This document shows, piece by piece, positions 10,121 to 62,448 of a stretch of DNA of 64,000 nucleotides. Within the stretch, counting starts at the first letter, position 1. Every line of letters starts with the position of its first letter. Source of the DNA: a bacterium (lineage in GTDB: Bacteria > Patescibacteriota > Minisyncoccia > Phycocordibacterales > VMGT01). The stretch spans positions 12,136 through 76,135 of the forward strand of contig JAUYPI010000014.1 in NCBI GenBank assembly GCA_030697645.1, written 5' to 3'. A program made the translations under genes and the position numbers. The notes beneath the pieces were generated by a model, which saw only the letters and a program-made list of their open reading frames with translations, searched no databases and had not been told where the DNA came from.

Positions 10121-10147
10121 GGCAAGATGTAGCCTTCTAACCGCAAC

Positions 10148-32160: not shown

Positions 32161-32167
32161 TAATGCC

Positions 32168-32899: not shown

Positions 32900-32901
32900 C
32901 T

Positions 32902-40518: not shown

Positions 40519-41286
40519 ATGAAAAAAGACGCAAAAATACTTGTATTCATCCCCGCCCGCGGAGGGAGCAAAAGGGTGCAGGGGAAAAATACCCGCCCAT
40601 TTGCGGGGAAACCCCTGATCTCATACACGATTCGCATGGCAAAGACACTGAGGGGCGCTGATTTCCGAATCATCGTCTCGACCGAGGACGAGAAGATAGC
40701 GCAGGTGGCACGGCGCTTCGGGGCAGAAGTGCCTTTCTTGAGACCGCAGAGCCTCGCGCAGGATGACAGCCTCGTTGCCGACAGCGCGCTCCACCTCCTC
40801 GCAAGACTAAGACAAGACGAAGGGTATGTGCCGGATTACATCATGCACCTGCAGCCGCCCTCGCCTCTTGCGGAAGCAGAGGATGTATACCGGTGTATCG
40901 AAGCTCTCAGGCGCGATCAAAAAGCAGATGCGGCGCTCACGGTCTGCTCTACCCACCCGCTGCTCTACCGCTTAGGAGAAGGGAGCTATCTTGAGCTCGC
41001 CAATAAAAAAATAGCCGTTGATAAAAGGTTTATGCGGCGAGGCAGGATTACTGGTTTCCAAGGGCAAAAATTCCATCCCGCCTACAAACTCAACGGCTGC
41101 TTCGTCTATCTGGTCAAATACGCGGCGTTTGTACGAGAAAAAACCTTCCAACCAAAACGCACCCTCGCCGTCGTTGTTGACGCGTGGCGTTCCATAGACA
41201 TTGATACGCCGGATGATTTTGTACTCGCCGAAACGATTTATCGTAACCGACAAAAAATTCGACGCGCCCTTGCGTCATTTATATAA
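40519..41286 (+). CDS. Acylneuraminate cytidylyltransferase family, paralog 3
   Basis: ILVFIPARGGSKRVQGKNTRPFAGKPL motif. Confidence 0.8.
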   Translation: MKKDAKILVFIPARGGSKRVQGKNTRPFAGKPLISYTIRMAKTLRGADFRIIVSTEDEKIAQVARRFGAEVPFLRPQSLAQDDSLVADSALHLLARLRQDEGYVPDYIMHLQPPSPLAEAEDVYRCIEALRRDQKADAALTVCSTHPLLYRLGEGSYLELANKKIAVDKRFMRRGRITGFQGQKFHPAYKLNGCFVYLVKYAAFVREKTFQPKRTLAVVVDAWRSIDIDTPDDFVLAETIYRNRQKIRRALASFI

Positions 41287-41291
41287 AGGCA

Positions 41292-41516
41292 TCACAGGAG
41301 CGTTCGGAGCTCCTCGACGCTTACGTTTGCATCGCGCAGTATGCTTTTCAATGTTTTGGGGTGAAGTATGGTGCTGCCGTGAGCAGGAACCGTGGCGCGG
41401 CTGCCTGCTTTGTTGCGGTAGATCACGTGACTACCACTTTGGCGAGTAACAAAAAAGCCGCTCTTTTCAAGAACAGCCGAGATTTGTTTTGCAGTGAGAC
41501 GTGGAAGCCGGGGCAT
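41292..41516 (-). CDS. hicA: HicA-family toxin (mRNA interferase) of a type II toxin-antitoxin pair
   Basis: About 75 aa with KQISAVLEKSGFFVTRQSGSHVIYRN ... TVPAHGSTILHPKTLKSILRDA, the canonical HicA pattern including the catalytic His. The start could be 41558 if the upstream Met is used. Confidence 0.7.
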   Translation of the reverse strand: MPRLPRLTAKQISAVLEKSGFFVTRQSGSHVIYRNKAGSRATVPAHGSTILHPKTLKSILRDANVSVEELRTLL

Positions 41517-41541
41517 GGGTGACAGTCCTTGGCCACGCTCT

Positions 41542-41769
41542 CTACGCGGCAACAGCAACCGAGGCGACGCTCACCGAGCGCCCGGTGGGGATTATTTCTC
41601 GTTCTGCAGCACGATCGTCGAGGTGCAACTTTATGGCATCGCGTATGTTCTTCAGCGCTTCTTCGTATGTTTGTCCTTGGCTGTAGCACCCTTGTAATTC
41701 AGGGCAGGAAACGAAATATCCGTTTTTGTCTTGTTCTACGACGATGGCGAAGTGGTAGTAGTTTTTCAT
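41542..41769 (-). CDS. hicB: HicB-family antitoxin (RNase H-like fold partner of HicA)
   Basis: HFAIVVEQDKNGYFVSCPELQGCYSQGQTYEEALKNIRDAI matches the HicB/UPF0150 N-terminal domain and lies immediately upstream of hicA. Confidence 0.65.
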   Translation of the reverse strand: MKNYYHFAIVVEQDKNGYFVSCPELQGCYSQGQTYEEALKNIRDAIKLHLDDRAAEREIIPTGRSVSVASVAVAA

Positions 41770-41966
41770 GACTTAAGAGTAAACGACAACGGCTGGAAAA
41801 TCAAATCCCATGTTAAGAAATTCCAGCAAGAAAAGCATCCCTCCTGCGCGGGGCAGAGGGCTGCTGTTATCAGCGTAGACACAGAGAGGCCGTGGCGAAG
41901 CTGGTACGACTTTCGTACAGAGTTCTGCCACAGAATCCGCAGGAGAGTGTACCACGCTGCAGCCGC

Positions 41967-43127
41967 TTAGTCAACAAACTGTTTCTGTATCGGCACCGAT
42001 GCGAGGTTGAGGCTCTTTAAAATAGAGACGATGCGCTCGGCGGACTGGCCGTCGCCGTAGATATTCTTGACACGGCGGACTCTGCGGCGGAATCCCTCGT
42101 CCGTAAGCGCTGTGCGGATGGCGTGCTCGATTGCCGATGCGTCATGGGGAACGTCTATCACGTTTCCCGCTCTCTCTCTACCCTGCTGCCGCGAGCCGAT
42201 GTTGATTGTCGGCACGCGAAATGTCGCAGACTCGTGAATGCCGCTTGAAGAGTTGCCGACGAGTGCCGCGGCATGACGCAGCACGTTTGCGTAGTGCTCT
42301 GGAGACAGGCTCTTGAGACGTTTCAGCCGCGCGCCGCGCCTGATCCTCTTCACGATCGCTTCGGCCCCCGCATCGTTATTCGGATACAGAACGACCGCCT
42401 CGACGTTCGTTTTCGCTATAGCACGGAGTGTGATCTCGATCTGTTTTTCCGCATCGTGCATTTCCGTCGTTACCGGGTGCTGCACAACGAGGAGATATGG
42501 TGCCTGCGGGTCTACCCCCGCAATGCGGCATGTATCTTCTCGAGAGAGAATCGGGGCCGCGAGCAGCGCATCTATCGAAGGGCAGCCGACGGGGAAAATG
42601 AAACGCGGGTCCTCACCCATGCGCTTGAGACGCCGCGCAGCGCTCTTCGTTGCAGGAAAATGGATGTGCGCGAATTTACTCATCGCGTGCCGGAGCGATT
42701 CGTCAATGCTCCCCGTCACTTCACCGCCCTGGATATGCGCAACGGGGATGTTGAGATGCGCGCCGACGACCGCTGCGGCGAAATTGGCCCCAATATCAAA
42801 ACCGGTAAGCACAAGGTCGGGCTCGAGTTTTTCAAACAGGTCCGTAAGCGCGATCATCACGCGGCCGCAGCCGCGCGTCATGTGGCCACCGGTGTCGCGC
42901 ACCACCCGCTCCGGGAACATGGGAATCGTTGCGGCGATGTCGAACCCATCCTTTTTTATACTGTTGATATCTTCGCCGCGACTCTTTAAGAGCGATACTC
43001 CGGTGACAATAAGCCGGTACTCAAAAAAAGGGTCGCTCCGCAGGAGCGAGAGAATCGGCTTGAAGCGGGAGTAGTCCGCGCGGCGCTCGGAGACGAGCGC
43101 GACACGGAGCGGGCGTGTGGGGATCAT
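41967..43127 (-). CDS. UDP-N-acetylglucosamine 2-epimerase, hydrolysing type (NeuC/LegG-like)
   Basis: Two-domain GT-B-like epimerase with HIQGGE and NSSSG motifs typical of NeuC-family enzymes. Confidence 0.7.
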   Translation of the reverse strand: MIPTRPLRVALVSERRADYSRFKPILSLLRSDPFFEYRLIVTGVSLLKSRGEDINSIKKDGFDIAATIPMFPERVVRDTGGHMTRGCGRVMIALTDLFEKLEPDLVLTGFDIGANFAAAVVGAHLNIPVAHIQGGEVTGSIDESLRHAMSKFAHIHFPATKSAARRLKRMGEDPRFIFPVGCPSIDALLAAPILSREDTCRIAGVDPQAPYLLVVQHPVTTEMHDAEKQIEITLRAIAKTNVEAVVLYPNNDAGAEAIVKRIRRGARLKRLKSLSPEHYANVLRHAAALVGNSSSGIHESATFRVPTINIGSRQQGRERAGNVIDVPHDASAIEHAIRTALTDEGFRRRVRRVKNIYGDGQSAERIVSILKSLNLASVPIQKQFVD

Positions 43128-43184
43128 AACAAAAACTCAAAGTGTAAAATGCAAAGCGAAAAATAACAGTGCAAAAAGCAAAAC

Positions 43185-43325
43185 AAATTTCCAATTTCCA
43201 AAAAACCCGTCTCCAAACAAATCTCAAATTCCAATGCGTCAAATCTCAAACACGTACGTCGTGTTTGGAAATTGAAATTTGAATCATTTGTTTGAAGCTT
43301 GTTTTTTGGAATTTTGAATTTTGCT
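43185..43325. repeat. Palindromic intergenic repeat element, family 1, copy B
   Basis: ccaaacaaatctcaaattccaatgcgtcaaatctcaaacacgtacgtcgtgtttgga core. Its outer left arm is the reverse complement of the outer right arm of copy C. Confidence 0.85.
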
Positions 43326-43375
43326 GTGTTGTTTTGCAATTTTCGTTTTGCGATTTGCGCTTTATGTCATGTACG

Positions 43376-44392
43376 CTACCACCCAGCGCGGTCGAGGAGC
43401 GCCGAGATGTCGTCCTTCCCAAGCGGCGCCACGGCTCTCGTGAGGTATGTCTCCGAGGTACGCGGGAGAGCGCCAGCGTAGGTATACTGATCTGCGGCGA
43501 CGTCCGCAGTCGCTATCTGCGGGACGATGATAAAGTGGCGCTCAGTCTCAAGCGCGGTACGCGCCTCGTCCTCGGTGAGGAGCCCTTCGTGGATTTTCTC
43601 CCCCGGCCGAATCACTCCGTAGACCACGCGCGCTGGGGGGGAAGTGAAACGCTCTGCGCACACCTCCGCCAAATCCGCAATCTTGAGCGCGGGCATCTTC
43701 AGGACGAAAATGTCTCCGCCGCGCGCTCTCATCAGAGCCTCAAAGACGAGCTCGACCGCATCGGGTATCGTCATGAAAAACCGCGTCATATCCGGATGCG
43801 TTACCGTGAGCGCTCCAGCTCGCGCCTGCTCGTGAAAAAGCGGCAACACCGAGCCGACGGTACCGAGAACATTGCCAAACCGCACCGTCGTAAAAATTTT
43901 CCCTCTTTTCCCCTGAATGTAATGGGCTGCTGTTATGAGTCGTTCAGCGAGGAGCTTCGACGCCCCCATGGTGGAGGTCGGTGCCACTGCCTTATCGGTG
44001 GAGATCATCACCGTGTGCGTAATGGTCGGCGTGTTGAGCGCCGCACTGACCACATGCTGCGTACCGATAACATTGGTCTGCACCGCCTCGAATGGATTAT
44101 ACTCCCCCTGCGGCACATACTTAAACGCCGCCGCGTGGAAAATGATGTCCACATCCTCACACGCAGACATGAGGCGGTCCCGATCTCGAATATCGCCAAG
44201 GATATAGCGCAGACGACGATCTCGAGCGAACGCGTCCTCGACCTCAATCTGCTTAATGGCGTCGCGCGAGAAAATACGGACGACGGCAGGATCGAACGAC
44301 AGCAGTTGGTTCACAATCACGCGGCCGATCGAGCCGGTACCGCCGGTGACCAAAATCTTTTTACCGCGAATGAATGAAGCAGGGTCGGACAT
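43376..44392 (-). CDS. UDP-GlcNAc 4,6-dehydratase of the PseB/FlaA1/CapD (short form) family
   Basis: ILVTGGTGSIG, YGASK catalytic motif, overall FlaA1-like architecture. Start assigned to MSDPAS, because the longer ORF N-terminus is encoded by the repeat element. Confidence 0.75.
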   Translation of the reverse strand: MSDPASFIRGKKILVTGGTGSIGRVIVNQLLSFDPAVVRIFSRDAIKQIEVEDAFARDRRLRYILGDIRDRDRLMSACEDVDIIFHAAAFKYVPQGEYNPFEAVQTNVIGTQHVVSAALNTPTITHTVMISTDKAVAPTSTMGASKLLAERLITAAHYIQGKRGKIFTTVRFGNVLGTVGSVLPLFHEQARAGALTVTHPDMTRFFMTIPDAVELVFEALMRARGGDIFVLKMPALKIADLAEVCAERFTSPPARVVYGVIRPGEKIHEGLLTEDEARTALETERHFIIVPQIATADVAADQYTYAGALPRTSETYLTRAVAPLGKDDISALLDRAGW

Positions 44393-44399
44393 ATCGTAG

Positions 44400-44560
44400 A
44401 ATAAATTCCAAGCTCCAACCAACAATTTCCAAACAAACTTCAAATTCCAATGCGCCAAATCCCAAACTCTCACGTCGTGTTTAGTCCGCCAGCTGGCGGA
44501 TTGGATTTTGAATATTGTGATTTGTTTGGAGACGGGTTTTTTGGAATTTGGAAATTCGAG
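44400..44560. repeat. Palindromic intergenic repeat element, family 1, copy C
   Basis: Left arm nearly identical to copy A; right arm atttgtttggagacgggttttttggaatttgg is the reverse complement of copy B's left arm. Confidence 0.85.
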
Positions 44561-44567
44561 CTTTGTA

Positions 44568-45644
44568 TCACGGCACCACCATCTTCCAGCTCAGTTGGCT
44601 ATCCTTCTTGATTGGCCGTTTTGCGCGCATACCAAGGAGCCGCTTAAAATCAACCGCTCGTATCTCTCCGGTACCCGGCCTCTTCACCCATATATTCTCG
44701 CGCGTCAAGAGCTCCCCGCGCGCAATGTCCTGAATCGCTACCACAGAGGCGTACGCGAAGTCAATGGTCGGCTTTTCTGCGGCCAGTATGCGCTTGCTGC
44801 CCCCGCGCGCCGCAAAAATCGCGCGACTGCCCACGATGAGCTCGCGGAGCTCTCCGGGCATAATCGAAATCGCGATGTCCGGCCCGGGCCAACGCCTCTC
44901 CGAAGTAAAGTGCTTTTCGAGAATGGATGCACCCAGTGCAACTGCGGCAAGAGCAGTATAGATACCGAGCGAATGATCACTCGAACCTATGACTGCGCGC
45001 GGAAAGGCCCGCGCGAGCTCCGCGATCGCGCCAAGGCGCACGCTCTCATACGGCGTCGGGTAGAGCGAAGTGCAATGAAGCAACGCGTACGATACAGAAC
45101 GCCGCTCGAGGATGCGCACTGCCGGCCGGATAGAGCGGAGATCGTTCATGCCGGTCGAGAGGATTATCGGCTTCCCGAATGACGCGATGTGCTCGACCAA
45201 GGGGTAATTGTTGCACTCGCCGGAGCCAATCTTGTAGGCATGAACACCCAAGCGCTCGAGCCTGTCCGCCGCGGCGCGCGAGAATGGTGTGCAGAGGTAG
45301 ATCAGGCCGAGCGATTCGGTAAACTTTTTCAATTCGCGCTCCTGGTCCTCATCGAACGCGCACCGCGCCATGATGTCCCAGATCGATTCTTTCGTATGAC
45401 CCGGAATGACTTTCTTCGCGACGGGCGTCATCTCGTCCTCGATTACATGCGACTGAAATTTTACGCACTCGGCACCAGCCTTTGCCGCATCAGACACCAT
45501 GCGTTTTGCCTTGCGCATGTCGCCTTCATGGTTGATGCCGATTTCCGCAATCACAAACGGCGGGTAGTCCGCGCCAATAACCCGCTTCCCTATAGTGAGT
45601 GATGGTTTTTTTGCCCTTGCCATATCGTCACTTATGACTAACAC
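44568..45644 (-). CDS. Nonulosonic acid synthase (NeuB/LegI/PseI family) with C-terminal SAF domain
   Basis: AEIGINHEGD, KFQ, SDHS motifs plus the C-terminal SAF/antifreeze-like domain (ENIWVKRPGTG). Confidence 0.8.
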   Translation of the reverse strand: MLVISDDMARAKKPSLTIGKRVIGADYPPFVIAEIGINHEGDMRKAKRMVSDAAKAGAECVKFQSHVIEDEMTPVAKKVIPGHTKESIWDIMARCAFDEDQERELKKFTESLGLIYLCTPFSRAAADRLERLGVHAYKIGSGECNNYPLVEHIASFGKPIILSTGMNDLRSIRPAVRILERRSVSYALLHCTSLYPTPYESVRLGAIAELARAFPRAVIGSSDHSLGIYTALAAVALGASILEKHFTSERRWPGPDIAISIMPGELRELIVGSRAIFAARGGSKRILAAEKPTIDFAYASVVAIQDIARGELLTRENIWVKRPGTGEIRAVDFKRLLGMRAKRPIKKDSQLSWKMVVP

Positions 45645-45724
45645 GACACACGCCCACTAGCAAGGACGCATGCGCCATCGATTTCATCTTGCTCACAGAG
45701 CAACCTCATGGTATTTTATTCTCC

Positions 45725-46147
45725 ATGAAAAGAAAGTCGGGTCCGCGCCCCGGGACGAGTATCGGAGTTGATCTTGAACAGATACGCCGTTTCCGGGCAC
45801 ACTCGTTTTCAAAAGAGAAAAGATTTTGGGTACATATTTTTTCCGCACGAGAACTGGAGCGACTTGCGACGTATACAGATCCCTATCCTCATGCGGCGGG
45901 TATGTTTACGGCAAAAGAGGCCGTCGTAAAATCACTTTCTTTTTTTAAGAAAAAATTATCCATTCGAGACATTGAGGTGCTCCACGAAAAAGATGGCCGC
46001 CCTATTGTTTTTATACGGAGCTTAAAAGACATGACGTGCCAGGTGAGTATCTCGCACACGCTCGAGTATGCATGCGCCGCCGCCGTGTGCCAGGAAACAA
46101 CCTCCAATAAAAAGTATGGAACAAAAAGAAATACGAGAGCGGATTAA
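45725..46147 (+). CDS. 4'-phosphopantetheinyl transferase (AcpS-type holo-ACP synthase)
   Basis: GVDLEQIRRF ... FTAKEAVVKS ... SISHT motifs. Confidence 0.65.
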   Translation: MKRKSGPRPGTSIGVDLEQIRRFRAHSFSKEKRFWVHIFSARELERLATYTDPYPHAAGMFTAKEAVVKSLSFFKKKLSIRDIEVLHEKDGRPIVFIRSLKDMTCQVSISHTLEYACAAAVCQETTSNKKYGTKRNTRAD

Positions 46148-46367
46148 AACAATATTCCAGGAAACGTTTCCCGAGGAAGCGTTCCGGTGGGAAAAAAAGC
46201 AGGAGGAATTCCCTCGATGGGATTCTTTAAGCCACATGGAGTTGGTCGGCAAATGCGAGGAGCGCCTGGGCTCCAGGTTCGAAATGGAAGAAGTTATGGC
46301 GCTCAACACGCCGGAGGATTTTTTTAGGGTGATTTCAAAAAAAAATGGCGGACCAGTTACTTCATAA
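46116..46367 (+). CDS. Acyl carrier protein
   Basis: DSLSHMELV phosphopantetheine-attachment serine motif in a protein of about 80 aa. Confidence 0.65.
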   Translation: MEQKEIRERIKTIFQETFPEEAFRWEKKQEEFPRWDSLSHMELVGKCEERLGSRFEMEEVMALNTPEDFFRVISKKNGGPVTS

Positions 46368-47814
46368 ATTTTTAGAAGCGAGCGCAAAAAAATTCCCCGA
46401 TAAAACCGCCCTGCGCATGGATCGGCGTACGCTCTCGTATAGAGAACTCGACCGGGCCGCTCAATGTGTCGCCTCTCTTCTTGTCGGATCAACGACATTT
46501 CAAGATCGCGTGATTTTGTTTTTGCCGAACTCATGCGAATTTATCGCGTGTTATTTCGGCATTCTAAAAGCGGGGCGGGTGGCGGTACCGGTTGATCCTG
46601 CAATAAACCCGGAAATGCTTCTGAAAAGGACCGTATCGAGCGGTGCAGTGCTCTGTCTCACGAACGAAATTCTGATGCAAAAATTCAAAGACGTGGTTCG
46701 AGGCGTACGGGTCGAGGATGCATCTCGGGCAATGCTCTGTACCGACGCTCTTCGGGAAAAGCGCACAGTCAGGCCGAACGATCTCGCGTCGCTCCTCTTT
46801 ACCACTGGCACCACCGGTACCCCAAAAGGGGTTATGGTACGACATGCCAACGCGTACTCGGCTGCAATAAATATGCTGCGGAGGCTTAACTACTCTCATG
46901 AGTCCATCGACAGTAATCCTCTCCCCATAACTCATTCTTTCGGATTAGGTAATGTCCATGCCGTTTTCGGGGTCGGCGGGACGGTTTTGCTCTATAAAAA
47001 CTTTATCAACTTAAAAAAGATTCTGGAGGATATCCGTGAATATCGGGCAACCTCTTTTTCGGCAACCCCTCCCGTTTTTGAAACCCTGGCCGGACCCTTG
47101 AGCACTTTGTTTAAGCGCTCAAGCGCCAGTCTGCGTCTCCTGCTTGCAAACAGCGCCCCGATTCCTCCCCGGACGATAAAAAAAATTCTGTCATTGGCGC
47201 CGCGCGCCGATTTTTTTACCTATTACGGTCTGACTGAAGCGTCTCGCTCCACGTTTATAAATTACCGCACCGAGCGGCGGTTTACCTCGGTCGGCAAAGC
47301 CGCTCCACGCGTAAAGATCGCGGTGCTCTCCGAGCGAAGAAAAAGGCTTCCCCGAAACACAATCGGAGAAATTTATATCAACGGACCGACCGTGGTCAGC
47401 GGCTACTGGAAAAATCCAAAAGAAACCAAAAAAAGAATACAAAAGAAATGGCTCGCAAGCGGCGATAACGGATACCTTGATGAAGACGGCTATCTGTATA
47501 TTGTAGGCCGCACAGACGACGTGATGAACATCGGCGGGAATAAAGTATATCCGTACGAAATCGAGGAAATGTTAAAAAAACACGCGCTGGTTAAAGACGC
47601 GGCCGTTGTCGCCGAGAAAGACGCGTGGCTCGGAGAGGTGCCGCGAGCCGTTATTGTGCTCGGGGAGGGTTATAACGAAAAAACTATACAGGAAGATATA
47701 CAAAATTTTTGCCGAAGAAACCTTGAGCCGTTTAAGACCCCGAAGAGTATCGAGTTTGTCAAAAATCTGCCGAAAACGTCGTCTGGTAAGGTGCAGAAAA
47801 AGTTATTGCTATGA
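46345..47814 (+). CDS. AMP-dependent synthetase/ligase (ANL adenylating enzyme, probable acyl-ACP or acyl-CoA ligase)
   Basis: TTGTTGTPKG AMP-binding motif and the C-terminal GEI / GRTDD / K motifs. Confidence 0.8.
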   Translation: MADQLLHKFLEASAKKFPDKTALRMDRRTLSYRELDRAAQCVASLLVGSTTFQDRVILFLPNSCEFIACYFGILKAGRVAVPVDPAINPEMLLKRTVSSGAVLCLTNEILMQKFKDVVRGVRVEDASRAMLCTDALREKRTVRPNDLASLLFTTGTTGTPKGVMVRHANAYSAAINMLRRLNYSHESIDSNPLPITHSFGLGNVHAVFGVGGTVLLYKNFINLKKILEDIREYRATSFSATPPVFETLAGPLSTLFKRSSASLRLLLANSAPIPPRTIKKILSLAPRADFFTYYGLTEASRSTFINYRTERRFTSVGKAAPRVKIAVLSERRKRLPRNTIGEIYINGPTVVSGYWKNPKETKKRIQKKWLASGDNGYLDEDGYLYIVGRTDDVMNIGGNKVYPYEIEEMLKKHALVKDAAVVAEKDAWLGEVPRAVIVLGEGYNEKTIQEDIQNFCRRNLEPFKTPKSIEFVKNLPKTSSGKVQKKLLL

Positions 47815-48896
47815 CAAAAAAGACGGATGTGCATTCTCACTGGAGCTTGCTCGCAGTTCCGAAAATGTTCTTTCCGGGCCATCTCTACCACGGTGCACGG
47901 GCGCTCGATTTTCTCAGGGTACTCGACGGTGATTTTTTGCTCGTCGCATCAAGGGATGCGTGGGCCACGCACAAGAATATGATCGCTTCCCGTTTTACGA
48001 CCGCCCCGAGCGAAATCTTTTTTGTGGAGAAAGAACCTACCGCTCGGACATACAACGATTTTTCGATGAAGCTTGCCGATAAAAATTATGCGTCTGTTGT
48101 TGGCGTCGGCGGAGGTTCCACCATGGACGTGGCAAAAACCGCGCATATCCATAAAGAAAATCTGCAGGTTATTTTAATTCCCACGACGGCAGGAAGCGGG
48201 TCGGAAGTAAGCCGGTATTCCTTATTCGTCAACGAAAAAGGCGAGAAAGAGCCACTGGTGTCCCCGGCGCTGCTTCCGGATGTGATTTTGTATGATCCCG
48301 TACTGCTGACTTCTCTTTCGCCCGAACTCACCGCCTGCACTACCATTGACGCATATGCCCACGCATTAGAAGGCCTGACTTCGAGACTGGCGCATCCAAT
48401 TTCAGACCTGTTTGCAAGAGAGGCCCTCTCGCTCATCTTAAAATATGCGCCGCAGGCATGCCGCAATCCCGAAAATCTTGAAGCACGGACGTATTTACAA
48501 ACCGCTGGGTTTCTCTCAGGACTGGTACAGAGCAGCGCGTCGGTCGGGCTCGCGCATGGCATGGCAGATTTTTTCGGTCCTCGCTTCGCTCTTGGGCATG
48601 GCCGGGCTATTGCACTGTTTCTTCTGCCGGTCATCCGGCTCAATCTCAAAAGAAACAGCGAGTACTATAAAAAAATTCAAGAAACAAGGGATATTTTAGA
48701 ATGCACACGGAAGCTCTACGGGGAATGCGGTCTGGACACTGATGTGCGGGAGGCGCTGAAAGAAGCGCGGGTATCTTTAGAGGAAGTATCACGTTTTATA
48801 AAAAAAGACCCAGCGGTAAAAACGCATCAATTCATGCCGAGCGACGCGGAGCTCGAAGAGATTATGCGGTCCTGCGGTATCACCTGTGTCAGATAA
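47811..48896 (+). CDS. Iron-containing (group III) alcohol dehydrogenase family protein
   Basis: GVGGGSTMDVAK glycine-rich motif and conserved His cluster (HALE ... HGMA). Confidence 0.7.
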   Translation: MTKKTDVHSHWSLLAVPKMFFPGHLYHGARALDFLRVLDGDFLLVASRDAWATHKNMIASRFTTAPSEIFFVEKEPTARTYNDFSMKLADKNYASVVGVGGGSTMDVAKTAHIHKENLQVILIPTTAGSGSEVSRYSLFVNEKGEKEPLVSPALLPDVILYDPVLLTSLSPELTACTTIDAYAHALEGLTSRLAHPISDLFAREALSLILKYAPQACRNPENLEARTYLQTAGFLSGLVQSSASVGLAHGMADFFGPRFALGHGRAIALFLLPVIRLNLKRNSEYYKKIQETRDILECTRKLYGECGLDTDVREALKEARVSLEEVSRFIKKDPAVKTHQFMPSDAELEEIMRSCGITCVR

Positions 48897-49983
48897 TATC
48901 GAAAAACTGCTTGCCGAACCGGCTTTCATGCCGTATGAAGAAAAGGCGCTCCTTTTTTTGGCGGCCATGCGCGACTCGGTTTTGTTCCATAAAAAAAATT
49001 GCGTTTTTTATGCTACGTTCTTGAGCGCGAATGCTTTTGACGGTCGCGTGGACAATCTCGCCGATATTCCGCCGCTCCCCATTGGCATCTTTAAGAAACG
49101 GACGTTGCTCTCCGTTCCGCAAAGCGACATCGTAAAAATGACCCATTCGAGCGCCACAACGAGCGGCACGCCGAGCTCTATTTCCATTGATCGAGTTACC
49201 CGAGAGCGGCAGAGAACGGCGCTTTCTAAAATCATGTCTTCGCTTCTCGGTGGGGAGCGCAGGCCGTTTGTTATCTTTGACAGTCGCTCCGTTGTAGAGT
49301 CAACGGCAGAGGAACTTTCTTCCCGCGCTACCACGATCCGCGGGCTGCTCGCTTTTTCGTCTGGTTTCTTTTGCCTGCTTGATAGCGAACTTCAGTTACG
49401 CGCGTCTGTACTGCAAGAGGCACTGAAAAAAATGGACGGGCGGTCTCCGGTATTTTTTGGCGTCACCACAATACTCTATGAAATTTTCCAAAAATATAAA
49501 CACGATCGGGACGTACGCGCCCTGCTAAAAGAATTTCCACATCCGACCGTACTTTTTAGCGGCGGGTGGAAAAAGTTGGCGAGCATGAATATCGACCACG
49601 AGTCGTTCAAAAAAGGCCTTGCCGAATTTTTTTCTGTTGCGAGGAACGACCTTATTGATTTTTACGGCATGATAGAGCAGCCGGGGGTGATTTATCCTGA
49701 ATGTGCATACGGCTACAAGCATGTGCCCGCGTATGCAGAGGTTATTATTCGTGATCTAAGAAGCATGCGGCCTCTCGGCGCGAGCCAGGAGGGGATGATC
49801 GAGGTTCTCTCGCCCCTTGCCCATAGCTACCCGGGCATCGCCCTGCTTACCGATGACATCGGGAGCCTCGGAGGAAATGACGGCTGCACATGCGGACGGC
49901 GGGGACAATTTTTTTCTTTCGTGCGCAGAGCTCCTGAAGCGGAAACCAAAGGATGTGCCGACGCTCTAGAGCTGCCGCCATAA
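48886..49983 (+). CDS. LuxE-family acyl-protein synthetase-like protein
   Basis: Pattern shared with LuxE: SSATTSG, GGWKK, TDDIG, KGCA near the C-terminus. Confidence 0.6.
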   Translation: MSDNIEKLLAEPAFMPYEEKALLFLAAMRDSVLFHKKNCVFYATFLSANAFDGRVDNLADIPPLPIGIFKKRTLLSVPQSDIVKMTHSSATTSGTPSSISIDRVTRERQRTALSKIMSSLLGGERRPFVIFDSRSVVESTAEELSSRATTIRGLLAFSSGFFCLLDSELQLRASVLQEALKKMDGRSPVFFGVTTILYEIFQKYKHDRDVRALLKEFPHPTVLFSGGWKKLASMNIDHESFKKGLAEFFSVARNDLIDFYGMIEQPGVIYPECAYGYKHVPAYAEVIIRDLRSMRPLGASQEGMIEVLSPLAHSYPGIALLTDDIGSLGGNDGCTCGRRGQFFSFVRRAPEAETKGCADALELPP

Positions 49984-49987
49984 ACGT

Positions 49988-51271
49988 ATGCGAATACAAA
50001 GCCTGTTTTTCGAGGGCAAAAAAGAGCATACCGAGCGCGAGCTTGCCGATGTGGTGCGAGCGCTTGAAGATTCGCGCGCTGCCCTGCACAATATTCCGGT
50101 TGATGAGATTCTTGATTTTTTTGGCGTCCTTAGCGCGCGAATCGCCCGATTATCTCATCCGGCGCAAAAAACCGGAGGCAATTTTGGAGACTTGGTGCAT
50201 TTTCTTAAAAAAGAAAACTTGGGAAAAAACCTAGACCTTGCTCTGAGGGGAAAACGTGCGTACCTCGACGGTTTTATACAGCCGGAGGGGTTTGATTTTT
50301 TCCTGCACGCCCAACCTAGGGGACTCGTGGTCGAGTGGCTTGCCGGCAATATCCCGCTGCTCGGCATATATTCCCTGGCGCAGGTGACGGCCACCAAGAA
50401 CGTTTTGCTCACGAAAGCGCCCAAGAAAAATTACGAGATTTTGCTTGACATGCTCGAGATAGCGGCTGACGCGGCGCGGGGGCATAAAGGATGGGAGCGT
50501 ATCATCAATTCGGTAAGTGTTATAGGTGTCCCAAAAAACGACAGAGCTGCCCACGAGGAACTTTCCCGTTTTGCCGATGTCCGTATACTGTGGGGTGGTG
50601 AAGAGAGCGTCAAAGCGATTTTGTCTCTTTCTAAAAATTTTTGGACTGAAGATATCGTATACGGCCCGAAGTACTCGTATGCTCTGATCAGCAAAGCGGT
50701 TCCTCAAGACCGCATGAGAACTATAGCCAGCGCCCTCGCCGTTGACGTGGCAAATTTTGATCAGTACGCCTGTTCTTCTCCCCACGTTGTTTTTATTGAA
50801 GCGGGTGGAGTAGCGACGCCTGAGGTATTCGGTCAGATACTTGCAAAGGAGCTCGAAAGGACAACACGGCTCCTCCTCCCCAAGGGAGAGATGGATGCGG
50901 AAACGGTTATGCAGATATTGACTCTGCGCGCAGAGTATGCCTCACGGGGAGAGGTTATTATTCCTCAAGGAAACGCTACCGACTGGACAGTCATTATAAC
51001 GAACGAGGAAGGTTTTTCGCCCATCGTCGGTTCCCGCACTATTTTTATAAAACCAATAAAAAGCATCTCTGATCTGGCGTCACTAAACAGTCACAAAATT
51101 CAGACTATCGGCTTTGTGGGCGCTCCTGAAGAAGATTTGCAAAAAATAGATGACCTAACATTGAAGGGCGGTGACCGTCTCCCGCAATTGGGGAATATGA
51201 GCTTTTTCGCTTCTCCCTGGGACGGACTCTTCGCCATGGATCGGCTGGTGCGCTGGGTCCGCTATCACTAA
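49988..51271 (+). CDS. LuxC-family acyl-CoA/acyl-ACP reductase-like protein
   Basis: Size and motif similarity to LuxC (GNIPLLGIYSL ... TKAPKK; Cys-containing active-site region); translationally coupled to the LuxE-like gene. Confidence 0.55.
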   Translation: MRIQSLFFEGKKEHTERELADVVRALEDSRAALHNIPVDEILDFFGVLSARIARLSHPAQKTGGNFGDLVHFLKKENLGKNLDLALRGKRAYLDGFIQPEGFDFFLHAQPRGLVVEWLAGNIPLLGIYSLAQVTATKNVLLTKAPKKNYEILLDMLEIAADAARGHKGWERIINSVSVIGVPKNDRAAHEELSRFADVRILWGGEESVKAILSLSKNFWTEDIVYGPKYSYALISKAVPQDRMRTIASALAVDVANFDQYACSSPHVVFIEAGGVATPEVFGQILAKELERTTRLLLPKGEMDAETVMQILTLRAEYASRGEVIIPQGNATDWTVIITNEEGFSPIVGSRTIFIKPIKSISDLASLNSHKIQTIGFVGAPEEDLQKIDDLTLKGGDRLPQLGNMSFFASPWDGLFAMDRLVRWVRYH

Positions 51272-51272
51272 A

Positions 51273-52421
51273 ATGCTCGCAGAAAATTTTACAACCCGGT
51301 ATCTTACCGAGCATGACCGCGGCGCTCTCACGGGCTTTATGAAGCGCGCCTACGGCGACCACTACATTCTTACGGACGAAAAATTTTTCGAGTGGTACAC
51401 GCACCCTCCGCGAGTAAGTGACGAAAAAAGTTCGCTGCCGATCATCGGGACATTTTGGAAAAATGCGCTGGTCGGGCACATATTTGTCATCCCACATTAC
51501 TTCAGCAACAGAACGGGGGCGAAGCTGCCCATGGTGTGGAATTCAAATTTTATGATCAGCGCCGAGTTGCAACAAAAAGGGATCGGTCCGGCGATTGTGC
51601 GCCATCTACTCGCCGATGAGTCAATTTTTATTTCCGCAGGCACCGGTGCGAGCCTGCAGCACAAGGGCGGCAGGAGTCTCCTTGAAGCCATGGGCTACAA
51701 TTTCGGCTTTATGAATAAATATGTTTTTGTGTTCGACGAAGTCGCGCTCAAAATCTTCAAAGAAGTACGGCCGGGAGATACAGAAAAAATCAAAGAAGGA
51801 TTGAGCCGATTTCAGCACTTCAAAGGCGAGACGGTAGACACGATGAAGCCATCGGTGTTTGACCAAACGATGACCGATTTTTGGGAAAAAAACATGGCGA
51901 AAAAATTTTACGGCGCATGGCGCGACGCCGATTTTTTCAACTGGAGATATGGTGCCCATCCGCATTTTACCTATACGCCGCTCGTCATTGCGGACGAGAA
52001 ACATGAAATCAGGGGGCTCGCGGTATGGAGAATTGCCGAGATCGCTCCTTCACAGAAGCGCGTGGGAAGGGTGGTTGAATTTCTTCCCGACGACGGGTTT
52101 GCCGAAGCTCTGGCTTTTGCTCTCCTCGGCGAATTACAAGAGGCGGGCGCGCTTATGGCAGATTTTTTTATGACAACAAACCTCTTTGACCACGCCCTGA
52201 CTCGCCTCGGTTTTATATCCTCCCGAGATTTTACCGAGCGGGTCCCACGGCTACTGGACCCTCTCAGTTTCTCCGACCCTTTTGTCAATATCGTCTCCAA
52301 AAATATACGCGCCATTGATCCTGAGAATGGTTTTAATTCTTTTTCCAATTGGTATGCCACGAGCGCCGACGGTGACCAGGACCGCCCTAATACCATTACA
52401 AATTTAAATACGAGCCCATGA
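51273..52421 (+). CDS. FemAB-like / GNAT-fold acyltransferase
   Basis: 382-aa two-lobed GNAT-like architecture of the FemAB-related type found in EPS loci. Confidence 0.45.
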   Translation: MLAENFTTRYLTEHDRGALTGFMKRAYGDHYILTDEKFFEWYTHPPRVSDEKSSLPIIGTFWKNALVGHIFVIPHYFSNRTGAKLPMVWNSNFMISAELQQKGIGPAIVRHLLADESIFISAGTGASLQHKGGRSLLEAMGYNFGFMNKYVFVFDEVALKIFKEVRPGDTEKIKEGLSRFQHFKGETVDTMKPSVFDQTMTDFWEKNMAKKFYGAWRDADFFNWRYGAHPHFTYTPLVIADEKHEIRGLAVWRIAEIAPSQKRVGRVVEFLPDDGFAEALAFALLGELQEAGALMADFFMTTNLFDHALTRLGFISSRDFTERVPRLLDPLSFSDPFVNIVSKNIRAIDPENGFNSFSNWYATSADGDQDRPNTITNLNTSP

Positions 52422-53383
52422 CCGATGCATCAATCATCATCGTCTATCACTACATACAAAGAAAGGAGGAGCGGCCGAGAATGAAAGGCATGCTCGTGGA
52501 TGATTTTGAACGACACGTCAAACTTTTATTAGAAAGCGGGTATCGCATCGTGACGTTACATGAGTACCTCGAGGCGACAAAGGATTTAACCACTCTCCCG
52601 CCGTCGAAAATGGCCGTGCTGAGTTTTGACGACGGCCTCAAGGTTCATATCGAAAATGTAATGCCTCTGTTTCAAAAATATGGACTAAAAGGGAGCTTTT
52701 TTGTGATCACTCGCCCCTTGACTGATCGCTGGCTTGCTCCGGTCCACAAAAACCACCTACTTCTTGCTGCGTCGGTAGAAGAAGACTCCTTGTTTTCTGT
52801 TGCTGATTTGATTACCGAAGCCACGCGTTGGCTCGTTAAAAACAGCGGGGTTGCGGCTCCTCTAAACACCGAGGACCTGATCAAAAAATATGCAGCGATG
52901 TCTCCCTGGGACGACCAGACGACTGCATATTATAAATATCTGCTCAATGTTTTTGTTTCCGAACCTGTGCGCTCGTTACTTATTGACCACTTGTTTCGCG
53001 CGTTCTACGGCGAACTATCGGCGTGGGTTAGCAAATTTTATTTAGACAAAGAGGACATACAGCAGATGCAGCGCGCCGGTATGGAAATCGGCTCTCACTC
53101 ACATACACACCAATTTTTGTCTTCGCTTTCCGAAGAAGCGCAGCGCGAGGAAATCGTTCGCTCTAAAATAATACTTGAGGAAATTTTGGGGGAGATGAGT
53201 ACGTCATTTTCGTACCCGTACGGTTTAGGCGGAGCATACGATCAAGTTGCGATGGATATTGCAAAAACGTGCGGCTTCCGTGCAGCCCTGACATGCGAGA
53301 AAGGCTACGCCGCCGCGTCTCCGAGCCTACTCGCCATTAACCGGATTGACGCCAATGACATGCAGAAATATCTGATTACATGA
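52418..53383 (+). CDS. Polysaccharide deacetylase family protein (CE4, PEP-CTERM-locus-like subfamily)
   Basis: SFDDG ... HSHTH NodB-type motifs. Confidence 0.7.
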   Translation: MTDASIIIVYHYIQRKEERPRMKGMLVDDFERHVKLLLESGYRIVTLHEYLEATKDLTTLPPSKMAVLSFDDGLKVHIENVMPLFQKYGLKGSFFVITRPLTDRWLAPVHKNHLLLAASVEEDSLFSVADLITEATRWLVKNSGVAAPLNTEDLIKKYAAMSPWDDQTTAYYKYLLNVFVSEPVRSLLIDHLFRAFYGELSAWVSKFYLDKEDIQQMQRAGMEIGSHSHTHQFLSSLSEEAQREEIVRSKIILEEILGEMSTSFSYPYGLGGAYDQVAMDIAKTCGFRAALTCEKGYAAASPSLLAINRIDANDMQKYLIT

Positions 53384-53425: not shown

Positions 53426-54054
53426 ATGGTGTACAAAATGACAAAAACAGAATACGAAGAATATCAAAAGACGAACGGAGATTATGCTATAGCATCTTTG
53501 TTTTTTCTCAACGAACTGAAAAACATAGTGAGGAGTGAAAAACCGAGGAGAATTTTAGAGGTCGGCGTCGGCGTCGGAACAATACCGTACGGCATAAGAG
53601 AATTTCAAAACACGTTCGAGTATGTCGGAACGGAGAATTTTGAACCCTGCATCGAGCGGCTGCGCGAAAACGCTCCCTTTGTCATCCATGAACGGTTCAT
53701 AAAAGAAACGAAGGGGGCGTTTGACCTCATCATCGTTGACGGACAAGATGCAGATACTCATGGACTCCCGCAACGATTGCGCAGGGGGGGGTAATCCTTG
53801 TCGAAAATGATCGGCGAGGCCAAGTCGGGGTGCTTCAGGAAGCATCGAGGAAAAGAACATTCGTATCCTACCGCAAGAGGCCGTTTTCGCTGCATAAAAG
53901 CGCAGGGTATACCATTTTCTATTTTGAACCAAACGCAATGGATTATATGCGGTGGATCACCGGCTCTCTGTGGTACAAGATAAAAACTCATCTGCAATTC
54001 CGGATCAACAGGGCACGGACCTTCGTTAAGTCCGCTCTCAAGTCATATGCATAA
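53426..54054 (+). pseudogene. Small class I SAM methyltransferase interrupted at a poly-G tract (possibly phase-variable or frameshifted)
   Basis: 5' ORF (to 53794) carries motif I ILEVGVGVGT and motif II FDLIIVDG and stops directly after G8-9 at about 53783-53791. The adjacent frame continues GVILVEND ... to 54054 (MTase motif III), giving a normal 208-aa enzyme if fused. Confidence 0.55.
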
Positions 54055-55402
54055 GGACGCCAAAACAATCGTCATTACCAGTTTTCACTCCTTAATTTCG
54101 AGAAATATTCTCTCGACGGATATCTTGAAACTGCTTCTACGAGACGGGGCGCGCCTCGTGATCGTGGTTCCTCGGCATAAAACCGTATATTACGAAAAAA
54201 ATTTCGGCGGACCGAATGTTTGTATTGAAGGCGTCGACGCCAATCAACCAACGCGTTATTTTTTCGGTCTCTTCTTCAAACGCCTGTCCTGGAACATGCT
54301 CGCCACCGAGACCGTCGCCATCAGGCAAACGTACCAACGCGTCGTCAACAAAAAGTGGCTCCAGTACTATCTATTTTTTCTGCCAGCGCGTGTGCTGGCG
54401 CGCTCGTCTCTGCTCGTGCGCTTCGTGCGATTTTTGGATTACCATCTGTCGCCCAAAAATATATTTAAGAAAATTTTTGAGCACTATGCCCCCGATCTCA
54501 TTTTTGCCACTGATATCCAGAACGAAAATGACGTCGCGCTACTGCAGGAAGCAAAAAAACGCTCTGTGCCACGAGCGGCGATGGTCAGATCGTGGGACAA
54601 CCTCAGCCAGTGGGGGATGATCCGGATTGTGCCACTGACACTCATCGTCGCAGATGAGGTTTCAAGACAGGAGGCGCACGCGCTCCACTATATCCCCGAG
54701 AAACGCATCGCGGTTACCGGCGTTCCTCACTACGATCGCTACCGCCGCGGCCCGCAGGAGAGTCGGGAGACATTTCTCGCGTCGCTCGGTCTTGATCCGA
54801 CAAAAAAAGTTGTTCTCCACGCGCCCATCGGCAATTTCTATGTGAACGACGCCGAGATTGACCGCGTGCTCCTCGAGTTACTTGCGGAGACCGGGGAAAA
54901 TATCATCGTGCGCTTTCCGCCACTCGACACGGTGAGTAATATCGAAACTCTCCGTGCACCGAACGTGTATATTAATAAGCCGGGCCTCGCTTTTGGCGCC
55001 AACAGGTTTGCCGACCGAGAAATAACAGCCGCGGATGATACTTTTTTGATGAACGCCCTCTGTCACAGCGACGTGGTAACGACCGGACCCTCTACCATTG
55101 CGCTCGACGCGGCTCTGTTCAATAAACCGATTATTCTGATTCATTTTTACGCCGCGGCAAAAACGCACTGGGACAAACTCTATGGTTACGACTTTACGCA
55201 CATCAAACGATTGGTCCGGAGCGGCGGTGTCCGGGTCGCAGAGAGCGAGGGGGAATTTCGTGATTTATTAAAAATGTATTTACAAAACCCTCACCTCGAT
55301 GAGAGCGAACGAGGCGATATTGTCCGCACCATCTGCGGTCCATCAGATACAAGAGCGTCCGAGAGGGTCGTTCGTGCTCTTAGAGCCCTGTTGGCTTCAT
55401 GA
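54047..55402 (+). CDS. TagF/KpsS-like polymer-forming transferase, paralog D
   Basis: SFHSLISRNIL N-terminus, VLHAPIGN, IVRFPPLD and VTTGPSTIALDAALFNKPIILI motifs. Confidence 0.55.
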   Translation: MHKDAKTIVITSFHSLISRNILSTDILKLLLRDGARLVIVVPRHKTVYYEKNFGGPNVCIEGVDANQPTRYFFGLFFKRLSWNMLATETVAIRQTYQRVVNKKWLQYYLFFLPARVLARSSLLVRFVRFLDYHLSPKNIFKKIFEHYAPDLIFATDIQNENDVALLQEAKKRSVPRAAMVRSWDNLSQWGMIRIVPLTLIVADEVSRQEAHALHYIPEKRIAVTGVPHYDRYRRGPQESRETFLASLGLDPTKKVVLHAPIGNFYVNDAEIDRVLLELLAETGENIIVRFPPLDTVSNIETLRAPNVYINKPGLAFGANRFADREITAADDTFLMNALCHSDVVTTGPSTIALDAALFNKPIILIHFYAAAKTHWDKLYGYDFTHIKRLVRSGGVRVAESEGEFRDLLKMYLQNPHLDESERGDIVRTICGPSDTRASERVVRALRALLAS

Positions 55403-59723: not shown

Positions 59724-59777
59724 ATCTAATCCCTGTAATTGTAATCACCCGCACGAAACACCAAACCTCTCGCCATA

Positions 59778-59949: not shown

Positions 59950-59956
59950 TTACCCC

Positions 59957-61373: not shown

Positions 61374-61409
61374 ACCCTTCCAGAGAGTACCGGTTAAGCT
61401 GGTTACAGG

Positions 61410-62444: not shown

Positions 62445-62448
62445 AGCG

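Follow-up and report, generated by a model that had tools for sequence, protein, structure and literature searches.

A LuxE/LuxC cassette with a dedicated acyl carrier protein in a nonulosonic acid locus: a candidate module for N-acyl exchange

Described systems and the cassette

Flagellin glycosylation islands of Aeromonas group II and of many enterobacteria carry genes for an acyl carrier protein (ACP), a FabG-like reductase, an AMP-ligase, LuxE and LuxC between their pse genes; these genes were annotated as fatty-acid-synthesis-like and were not assigned a function (PMC7874193, PMC4875605). Aeromonas strains with such islands produce pseudaminic acid derivatives of 376 and 422 Da with unidentified substituents (bioRxiv 10.1101/2024.05.20.594992). 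Here we analyze a 64,000-nucleotide stretch of contig JAUYPI010000014.1 (assembly GCA_030697645.1, positions 12,136 to 76,135 of the forward strand), further called the window, which probably originates from an uncultured bacterium of the Patescibacteria; a database protein with 100% identity is from a metagenome-assembled genome, and the closest relatives with a name are Patescibacteria. Eight plus-strand open reading frames (ORFs) were confirmed at 45689-53383, where the initial annotation had placed them. They encode an AcpS-type 4'-phosphopantetheinyl transferase (PPTase), a small ACP, an AMP-ligase, an iron-type alcohol dehydrogenase (Fe-ADH), a LuxE-like protein, a LuxC-like protein, a protein that we call ORF7, and a CE4 deacetylase. 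From their sequences and gene context we propose, with a probability of about 0.6, that this cassette is an acyl-supply and N-acyl-exchange module that would replace the N-acetyl group of a nonulosonic acid by an N-(reduced or hydroxy)acyl group.

The window and the Aeromonas and enterobacterial islands share the ACP, AMP-ligase, LuxE and LuxC core and its location beside nonulosonic acid genes, a likeness that rests on the published annotations of those islands. The cassette is a further architectural form of this recurrent module, which had already been noticed and never assigned a function. In the window, the Fe-ADH takes the slot that is held by a FabG-like short-chain dehydrogenase/reductase (SDR) in the Aeromonas-type variant. 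The operon additionally contains the PPTase, ORF7, the CE4 deacetylase and a TagB-like gene, and the adjacent sugar pathway is of the NeuB/NeuC type instead of the Pse type. The module goes undiscussed in a 2026 paper on flagellar pseudaminic acid in Clostridium, and a literature search for 4-hydroxybutyryl nonulosonates tied to gene clusters gave nothing usable. The Shewanella sfmABCDE flagellin-modification operon was considered as another LuxE/LuxC example and rejected, since the operon carries neither gene (PMC3765264).

Nod factor biosynthesis (NodB, NodA and the ACP NodF) and lipid A biosynthesis (LpxC, LpxD) follow the same logic as that proposed here, in which a metal-dependent de-N-acetylase is followed by an acyl-ACP-dependent N-acyltransferase with a specialised ACP. 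Whereas the window deacetylase shares the CE4 fold of NodB, it is not a member of that family (NodB model 24 bits, cutoff 240). The window acyltransferase differs from NodA and LpxD in being a predicted tandem GNAT protein, and its acceptor is presumably a nonulosonic acid. For a legionaminic-acid-type sugar, deacetylation and then re-acylation of the CMP-activated form have been reported (bioRxiv 10.64898/2026.04.20.719630).

A hydroxyacylated sugar is found in Tannerella forsythia, of which the Pse5Am7Gra/Leg derivative bears amidino and hydroxyacyl (glyceroyl or glycolyl) groups (PMC5378307, PMC5420450); the TagB-fold protein Tanf_01245/BFO_1060 represents the Pse/Leg transferase family of this organism (PMC5420450). 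The window has an AsnB gene, a putative hydroxyacyl-type supply, and a TagB-fold gene with a weak match to the BFO_1060 family (47 bits, cutoff 200). FkbH-type glyceryl-ACP loaders likewise place a small hydroxyacyl group on a carrier protein, and an FkbH-domain gene, cj1302, occurs within C. jejuni's locus for flagellar glycosylation (PMC7099621). The window differs from the FkbH systems in that it has no FkbH, and the acyl supply would consist of the ligase, Fe-ADH, LuxE and LuxC.

Phage attachment, immune recognition and motility are determined by the nonulosonic acids that flagella, S-layers, capsules and pili display. These sugars owe most of their diversity to their N-acyl groups, and the enzymes that install groups beyond acetyl, acetimidoyl and formyl are mostly uncharacterised. 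The locus ties the LuxC/LuxE-ACP-ligase core, an unnamed tandem-GNAT family and a CE4 subfamily into one testable pathway. It adds to the known islands a testable function for ORF7 and the CE4 enzyme, a modular exchange with FkbH systems, and a large family of putatively carrier-protein-dependent tandem GNAT proteins. It would also mean that Patescibacteria and DPANN archaea with reduced genomes carry a private PPTase and ACP for surface-glycan chemistry. If the chemistry were solved in one carrier, thousands of genes could be annotated, and the pseudaminic acid derivatives of Aeromonas and enterobacterial flagellins would likely be identified as well.

Enzymes of the cassette

The cassette shows operon-like packing. 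Adjacent reading frames overlap by 23 nt (ACP/ligase), 4 nt (ligase/Fe-ADH), 11 nt (Fe-ADH/LuxE) and 4 nt (ORF7/CE4), with gaps of only 4 nt between LuxE and LuxC and 1 nt between LuxC and ORF7. The G+C content of the region is 48-51%, as compared to 57-61% over much of the window. Between 45 and 57 kb, promoter-like sites were fewer than in shuffled sequences, and a terminator scan of the same region gave only weak candidate sites, located inside genes. Gene content, catalytic residues, synteny and fusions were read directly from the sequences. Every window ORF of at least 200 aa was scanned against Pfam, and NCBIfam scores were compared with the cutoffs of the respective models. Seven of the eight family assignments proposed initially were borne out by Pfam; ORF7 is the one that changed.

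The LuxE-family protein, an adenylating acyl-protein synthetase (48886-49983, plus strand), matched PF04443 with an E-value of 4.6e-59 (200.7 bits against a threshold of 24.9) over profile positions 23-386 of 391. The LuxC-family acyl-thioester reductase (49988-51271, plus strand) matched PF05893 at 1.6e-62 (212.2 bits against 21). The profile searches thus place both proteins in the families to which the initial annotation had assigned them. LuxE aligned with Photobacterium phosphoreum LuxE (7xc6_E) at 1.8e-19, its Cys357 matching the cysteine of the KGC motif, and this acyl-carrying residue lies nine residues before the C-terminus. All 81 homologs share Gly356 and Cys357, and LuxE also retains the adenylate-forming motifs. 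Similarly, LuxC aligned with 7xc6_A at 1.2e-18, with Cys262 in a DQYAC sequence opposite QQAC as the catalytic residue; Gln259 and Cys262 are invariant in all 79 homologs.

The pair therefore belongs to the same Pfam families as the LuxC-LuxE complex of luminous bacteria (PDB 7xc6) and keeps its acyl-carrying and catalytic cysteines. Because these two cysteines are conserved, the window enzymes probably use the same ATP- and NADPH-driven acid-to-aldehyde chemistry as the lux pair. On the other hand, identity to the 7xc6 proteins is only about 20-25%, and scores with the lux-operon equivalog models were far below the cutoffs (LuxE NF052244, 79.4 versus 550 bits; LuxC NF052251, 92.3 versus 750). 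No luciferase genes (luxA, luxB, luxD) were found among the scanned window ORFs, and, unlike in the luminous system, an ACP of its own, a further ligase and an alcohol dehydrogenase accompany the window pair, which probably does not act on a C14 fatty acid.

Directly upstream of LuxE, the Fe-ADH gene (47811-48896, plus strand) gave Fe-ADH and ADH_Fe_C matches, with the GGGS motif and the Asp/His metal-binding motifs readable, and is assigned to an aldehyde/alcohol step. The AcpS-type PPTase (45689-46147, plus strand) matched Pfam ACPS at 6e-16 and scored 65.9 bits with TIGR00556 (cutoff 45.35). The dedicated ACP (46116-46367, plus strand) gave a weak PP-binding match that is just above the cutoff (1.7e-4, 22.2 versus 20.8 bits). 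Its presence agrees with the initial annotation, and only the start differs: instead of position 46068, the ATG at 46116 is the more likely one, giving a protein of 83 aa (homologs have about 78 aa). The ACP belongs to a W-D-S-x-x-H subtype, with the serine encoded by nt 46224-46226, and the motif WDS..H..LV..LEE.F is kept in 69 module ACPs.

The third gene encodes an ANL-superfamily adenylating enzyme (46345-47814, plus strand), an acid-thiol ligase with AMP-binding (1.7e-71) and AMP-binding_C domains that is presumed to load the ACP. It stayed under every NCBIfam equivalog cutoff, the top match being a long-chain fatty-acid-CoA ligase subfamily (341 bits, cutoff 476). The closest solved relatives are a nonribosomal peptide synthetase A-domain, FadD-1, and oxalate-, 4-coumarate- and malonate-CoA ligases.

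ORF7 (51273-52421, plus strand, 382 aa) is predicted to be an Eis/NMT-like tandem-GNAT N-acyltransferase of an unnamed family with the C-terminal sequence DGDQDRPN. It had been labelled FemAB-like, which did not hold at the sequence level, since no Pfam or NCBIfam profile matched, FemAB-type profiles included. The predicted fold is a tandem GNAT, nearest to Eis and N-myristoyltransferase (NMT) at about 12-14% identity; the fold together with a Q/R-x-x-G-x-G/A pantetheine-binding motif identifies ORF7 as a GNAT protein. These fold relatives are amine N-acyltransferases that act on amino sugars (Eis) or with long or unusual acyl groups (NMT). The family is large, with 2419 clusters at E<=1e-10 in a profile search of 1.84 billion representatives. 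Among the 149 best family representatives, 110 contain the DGDQDRPN motif and 99 end within three residues of it. In NMT and Eis, the C-terminal carboxylate takes part in catalysis, and the position of the motif in the ORF7 family is reminiscent of this C-terminus. In contrast to Eis and NMT, which use acyl-CoA, the donor of ORF7 would be an acyl-ACP; ORF7 moreover has no Pfam family, and DGDQDRPN is specific to its own family.

The last gene of the cassette encodes a predicted CE4 (NodB-fold) metal-dependent de-N-acetylase (52418-53383, plus strand) that matched Polysacc_deac_1 in two stretches (2e-25, 89.4 versus 23.1 bits). The motifs FDDG, HSHTH and YPYG are readable, and catalytic motifs 1 and 2 are separated by a long insert. 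Synteny with related loci extends the conserved block past this gene to a TagB/TagF-fold transferase gene (54047-55402, plus strand; Glyphos_transf 4e-12). Sequence searches with the TagB-like protein against solved structures returned no matches; judged by its family and position, it is probably the CMP-nonulosonate transferase for the modified sugar. The 660-bp gap between the CE4 and TagB-like genes contains an ORF of 122 aa (53426-53794, plus strand) with a sub-threshold methyltransferase match, which may be a methyltransferase remnant. In locus L005, one of the related loci described below, the CE4 and TagB-like genes abut, unlike in the window.

Related loci, gene fusions and the proposed route

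Searched with a profile of LuxE relatives, species-representative genomes gave at least 573 loci. The carriers include DPANN and Asgard archaea, Nitrosopumilus, methanogens, Patescibacteria, Chloroflexi, Clostridium, Treponema parvum, Bacteroidota, Planctomycetes and Proteobacteria. Genes were counted by an iterative search within 10 kb in the best 80 of these loci, which come from very different phyla. An ACP was found at this distance from LuxE in 72 of the 80 loci, a ligase in 73 and LuxC in 75; the ligase adjoins LuxE in 73/80, and a few loci have no ligase. Three architectures recur: ACP-ligase-LuxE-LuxC, mainly in Clostridium; the Aeromonas-type ACP-SDR-ligase-LuxE-LuxC (about 20 loci; found in L030-L085, and next to NeuB in, e.g., L037, L047 and L055); and the window-type PPTase-ACP-ligase-FeADH-LuxE-LuxC (15 loci). 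An Fe-ADH is adjacent in 15 loci and a FabG-like SDR in about 20. Because these are unrelated folds within the same operon, the swap suggests that both variants include a carbonyl-to-alcohol step. PPTase genes occur in 15 of the 80 loci (7 archaeal, 2 from the candidate phyla radiation, CPR), mostly in archaea or Patescibacteria/Chloroflexi, a distribution that would fit hosts without an AcpS and ACP of their own.

The same order as in the window, PPTase-ACP-ligase-FeADH-LuxE-LuxC-ORF7-CE4-TagB-like, occurs in L005, and L001 adds a CMP-transferase, NeuB and a NeuC-type epimerase. In the Chloroflexi locus L014, the genes for a TagB-like protein, CE4, PPTase, ACP, ligase, FeADH, LuxE, LuxC, ORF7, CMP-transferase, NeuB and NeuC form one string. 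A TagB-like gene follows CE4 in L001-L003 and L005, with homologs in L014 and L090-L092. The slot after LuxC is occupied by ORF7 in the window, L001-L005, L014 and L015, and by a NeuD/VioB-type left-handed beta-helix (LbH) sugar N-acyltransferase instead of ORF7 in L023. Among 127 genes neighbouring the 15 window-type loci, we counted Hexapep (9), GT2 (8), DegT (7), GT1 (6), NeuB (3) and CE4 (3). AsnB genes lie near the module in L012, L023 and L036.

Fusions connect the ORF7 family to carrier proteins. Pfam-confirmed fusions of the ORF7 domain were found with a carrier domain (P0146, P0158, P0196 and P0221), with FkbH plus a PP-binding domain (P0159 and eight relatives), and with an AMP-ligase (P0153). 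The fused carrier domains bear the W-D-S-(L/M)-x-H sequence that is also present in the window ACP, and in 5 of the 149 best ORF7-family representatives a fused carrier domain has the WDSxxH motif of the module ACPs. The P0153 ligase is only 26% identical to the window ligase, which makes this an architectural link and not orthology. Because of these fusions to a carrier domain, FkbH and an AMP-ligase, we infer by the Rosetta-stone principle that a carrier protein provides the ORF7 family with the acyl group.

Three FkbH-ACP-ORF7 fusion genes from unrelated metagenomes (L090-L092) lie with genes for NeuB, a NeuC-type epimerase and a CMP-transferase, NeuB and NeuC being 36% identical to those in the window. 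These loci also encode AsnB, a MaoC dehydratase, a CE4 protein of 311-312 aa, TagB-like transferases and a Wzy polymerase. AsnB, 37-38% identical to the window AsnB, is encoded directly (L090, L091) or nearly directly upstream of the fusion genes, and CE4 follows them. This CE4 aligned with the cassette CE4 over its full length, including the long insert (27-30% identity, E ~1e-38), and gave no alignment with the other CE4 of the window. By these criteria of gene content, the sugar pathway, AsnB, an ORF7-type acyltransferase, CE4 and a TagB-like protein make up a conserved ensemble. Only the acyl supply differs, being FkbH in these loci and, in the window, the set of ligase, Fe-ADH, LuxE and LuxC; this part is therefore interchangeable. 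The initial suggestion that an ACP-tethered acyl group is moved to a sugar on which the deacetylase also acts is supported by the conserved synteny, the carrier, FkbH and AMP-ligase fusions, and the NeuB/NeuC/CMP-transferase/AsnB/CE4/TagB-like context around the FkbH fusions.

In the proposed route, the PPTase would convert the dedicated ACP to the holo form, and the ANL ligase, LuxE, LuxC and Fe-ADH would together act on a carboxylic acid to yield an ACP-bound acyl group that is reduced and probably hydroxylated. The substrate could be a dicarboxylic acid, of which one carboxylate would be reduced by LuxE and LuxC to the aldehyde and by Fe-ADH to the alcohol, with the ligase thioesterifying the other to the ACP. 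Conversion of a dicarboxylate to omega-hydroxyacyl-ACP is the simplest scheme for a gene set in which two ATP-dependent enzymes of carboxylate activation are strictly conserved alongside a thioester reductase and a dehydrogenase that forms an alcohol. CE4 would strip the N-acetyl group from the sugar, probably at the level of the free or CMP-activated nonulosonate, after which ORF7 would move the acyl group from the ACP onto the freed amine. NeuB, NeuC and the CMP-transferase would make and activate the sugar, and the TagB-like enzyme (54047-55402) would transfer it to the glycan. The order of steps, the redox direction, the nature of the acid, and the identity and position of the acceptor amine are our interpretation of the gene set.

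A more specific version is put forward tentatively, as a possibility that we would not bet on. The cassette would be one of several interchangeable acyl-ACP supply units that feed carrier-dependent Eis/NMT-like N-acyltransferases, which together with CE4 rewrite the N-acyl groups of sialic-acid-like sugars. LuxE and LuxC would reduce one end of a dicarboxylate to give an omega-hydroxyacyl group of the glycolyl, hydroxypropionyl, hydroxybutyryl or dihydroxybutyryl type. If correct, this would provide a first function for the LuxC/LuxE pairs of hundreds of glycan islands. It would also explain the 376-Da Aeromonas derivative, because by our arithmetic 316 + 60.02 Da corresponds to replacement of acetyl by C4H6O3.

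Several observations weigh against the exchange module as proposed. The structural model of ORF7 has low confidence in the C-terminal part that bears the conserved motif. The characterised relatives of the ligase do not discriminate among acids, and the dicarboxylate scheme is proposed as the simplest use of two activators. In the ligase-less locus L024, neither of the two genes upstream of the ACP, considered as a malonyl-ACP loader, is FabD-like (one is methyltransferase-like and one had no match). NeuB lies within 10 kb in only 9 of the 80 loci, and the window has no DegT aminotransferase, which bears on the choice of the amine that would be acylated. Furthermore, the bare ACP-ligase-LuxE-LuxC set of Clostridium is located beside PrdR-like sigma-54 activators with PAS domains and HpaB-family genes. 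That the core is always a glycan module was rejected on this basis: as the Clostridium neighbours are not glycan genes, the core is not intrinsically a glycan module, and its use there lies outside glycan chemistry and is possibly catabolic. The neighbours of window-type loci, in contrast, are genes for glycans and amino sugars. The Clostridium loci include L018, L020, L021, L025, L027, L029 and L038-L046, among others, and often have an Fe-ADH within 10 kb; the HpaB family also holds 4-hydroxybutyryl-CoA dehydratase.

A different use of the same enzymes would be a lipid route, in which LuxE, LuxC and Fe-ADH, working as in luminous bacteria, convert a long-chain fatty acid to a fatty aldehyde or alcohol that ends up as a lipid-like (alkyl or acyl) decoration on the glycan, and the ligase, ACP and ORF7 separately N-acylate the sugar with a fatty acid to a 'liposugar'. 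The only characterised LuxC/LuxE pair reduces C14 acids (PMC9157457), ORF7 resembles N-myristoyltransferase, the top NCBIfam match of the ligase is the fatty-acid subfamily mentioned above (below its cutoff), and the authors of the Aeromonas and Enterobacteriaceae studies speculated on a liposugar (PMC7874193, PMC4875605). We nevertheless consider this route unlikely, as the mass increments in Aeromonas are small (376 and 422 Da versus 316 Da; bioRxiv 10.1101/2024.05.20.594992). The window LuxC and LuxE score very low with the models of the true equivalogs, and the sister systems feed the ORF7 domain via FkbH, a loader of a C3 hydroxyacyl unit. To our knowledge, CPR and DPANN hosts usually have no fatty acid synthesis, which also argues against it. 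Alternatively, in a tambjamine Tab/Tam-like route, LuxC would reduce acyl-ACP to an aldehyde, which a transaminase would convert to an amine or amino-acyl group to be attached to the glycan. The sequence acyl-ACP to aldehyde to amine has been demonstrated with TabQ/TabE/TabA and TamA/TamH (bioRxiv 10.1101/2025.08.11.669332), and a class-III aminotransferase is indeed encoded, with a second Fe-ADH, just downstream of the block in L001-L003 and L005. The 64-kb window, however, contains no aminotransferase of any class, the Fe-ADH within the operon points to an alcohol as the end product, and LuxE, CE4 and ORF7 would be left unexplained, making this route improbable.

The redox enzymes could also run in the oxidative direction, from alcohol via aldehyde to an enzyme-bound thioester and then via LuxE to the ACP. 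An Fe-ADH and an acylating aldehyde dehydrogenase are a well-known pair, as in EutG/EutE or PduQ/PduP; the window Fe-ADH matches AdhE and EutG, and LuxC belongs to the aldehyde dehydrogenase superfamily, of which the reactions are reversible. The adenylate-forming motifs and acyl-carrying cysteine of LuxE, however, would be required only if a free acid were activated with ATP, and a second adenylating ligase would be superfluous, so that oxidation is about as improbable as amine formation. That ORF7 acylates the N-terminus or a lysine of a protein, with the cassette serving to lipidate or acylate a surface protein, would be consistent with NMT and Eis as its best fold matches, and Eis also acetylates proteins. 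The constant pairing of ORF7 with CE4, NeuB/NeuC/CMP-transferase and glycosyltransferases makes this very improbable. Finally, the initial annotation had linked the gene combination to the 'system-associated' families of exosortase/PEP-CTERM exopolysaccharide loci, and the cassette might be such a set displaced into a nonulosonic acid locus. The ligase, CE4 and AsnB indeed show weak similarity to the respective models, with scores far below the cutoffs for TIGR03098 (ligase_PEP_1; 278.9 bits, cutoff 592.35), TIGR03006 (XrtA deacetylase; 32.6, cutoff 276.2) and TIGR03108 (XrtA amidotransferase; 334.5, cutoff 816.9), and ORF7 gave no FemAB-type match. As had been noted before, no exosortase is encoded in the window (no Pfam match in any scanned ORF), and none was found in the 6.5 kb past its right edge (L086) either. 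LuxC and LuxE are not members of the exosortase set, and the related loci are glycan or nonulosonate islands. The displaced-exosortase explanation is largely refuted and is the least probable of all.

Sugar genes and other sets in the window and related loci

The initial placement of the cassette in a nonulosonic acid locus is supported by four genes at 40519-45644. Divergently adjacent to the PPTase gene is a nonulosonic acid synthase of the NeuB/LegI type (44568-45644, minus strand) with NeuB and SAF domains, which scored 373.7 bits with NeuB_NnaB (cutoff 399.65) versus 229 bits with PseI. It is followed by a PseB-like UDP-HexNAc 4,6-dehydratase (43376-44473, minus strand; Polysacc_synt_2 8.7e-93; PseB 318 bits, cutoff 408), a NeuC-type hydrolysing UDP-HexNAc 2-epimerase (41967-43127, minus strand; TIGR03568 369 bits, cutoff 236), and a CMP-nonulosonate synthetase (40519-41286, plus strand; CTP_transf_3 9e-19; PseF 135 bits, cutoff 206). 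The AsnB-type glutamine amidotransferase (35008-36855, minus strand; asn_synth_AEB 393.6 bits, cutoff 267) is a candidate for amidine or amide formation. Its coordinates can stand, because position 36855 matches residue 26 of the long ORF, where the NCBIfam alignments begin.

A standard 5,7-diamino (Pse/Leg) pathway was not recognized, as DegT had no match among the scanned window ORFs; its genes may be located in another part of the genome. Because a PseB-like dehydratase occurs together with NeuC, NeuB and a CMP-transferase and there is no DegT, the locus may make a nonulosonic acid other than a standard 5,7-diamino sugar; purely as speculation, a sugar of the 9-deoxy-Neu type would be compatible. 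Two of the FkbH-fusion loci, L090 and L091, likewise have no DegT despite the presence of NeuC, NeuB and a CMP-transferase.

Elsewhere, the window encodes a second NeuB, a second CE4, and many glycosyl- and methyltransferases, bringing the totals to three CMP-type cytidylyltransferases and three TagB/TagF-like proteins. The second CE4 (16434-17270, minus strand) is of the DUF3473-containing type. The two further TagB/TagF-like genes lie within 22351-25112 (minus strand), and the product of the 22351-23742 gene resembles the L090-L092 TagB-like proteins slightly more than the cassette-side protein does. What looks like a second ulosonic acid pathway is encoded at 7054-12654 (minus strand), with a NeuB-family synthase (a weaker match, 3.7e-41), a methyltransferase, a CBS-domain UDP-sugar dehydrogenase, a 430-aa protein without Pfam match, and the second CMP-type cytidylyltransferase. 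A third set of sugar-acid type at 58656-63944 (minus strand), continuing in L086:1-6564, comprises a DHQ-synthase-like protein, an SDR, a SIS-domain isomerase, a GFO oxidoreductase, a 2-hydroxyacid dehydrogenase and a CMP-type cytidylyltransferase. Past the right window edge, L086 encodes an HpcH/HpaI-family aldolase, a protein with HAD and nucleotidyltransferase domains, and a WavE-like protein. An HpcH-type pyruvate aldolase that replaces NeuB beside a CMP-transferase might represent another route to a CMP-activated keto-acid sugar.

Some related loci carry genes that bear on the type of acyl group. Directly after LuxC, a methylmalonyl-CoA-epimerase-like VOC protein (about 1e-17, below cutoff) is encoded in L009 (12386-12793) and L019 (12402-12797), which hints at a branched dicarboxylic thioester intermediate. 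L009 is a gammaproteobacterial and L019 a Saccharibacteria metagenome-assembled genome. On Rhizobium plasmids, genes for an LpxA-like acyl-ACP acyltransferase, a small ACP-sized ORF, a ligase, DegT, LuxE, LuxC and an SDR occur together. In L089 (Rhizobium anhuiense plasmid pRA_T24_2, 2206-11245), split transketolase subunits, the LpxA-like acyl-ACP acyltransferase, a 79-aa ORF, an AMP-ligase, a glycosyltransferase, DegT, LuxE and LuxC are encoded; these plasmids are of symbiosis size and come from clover rhizobia. Two-subunit transketolases make glycolyl-carrier-protein units in some natural-product pathways, and by analogy the L089 subunits would be a further hint of small hydroxyacyl groups. 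Midway in the glycan locus of the window, a CotH-kinase protein with a beta-helix region, a VTC-domain protein and a DUF4956 protein are encoded in a row (29540-33564, plus strand).

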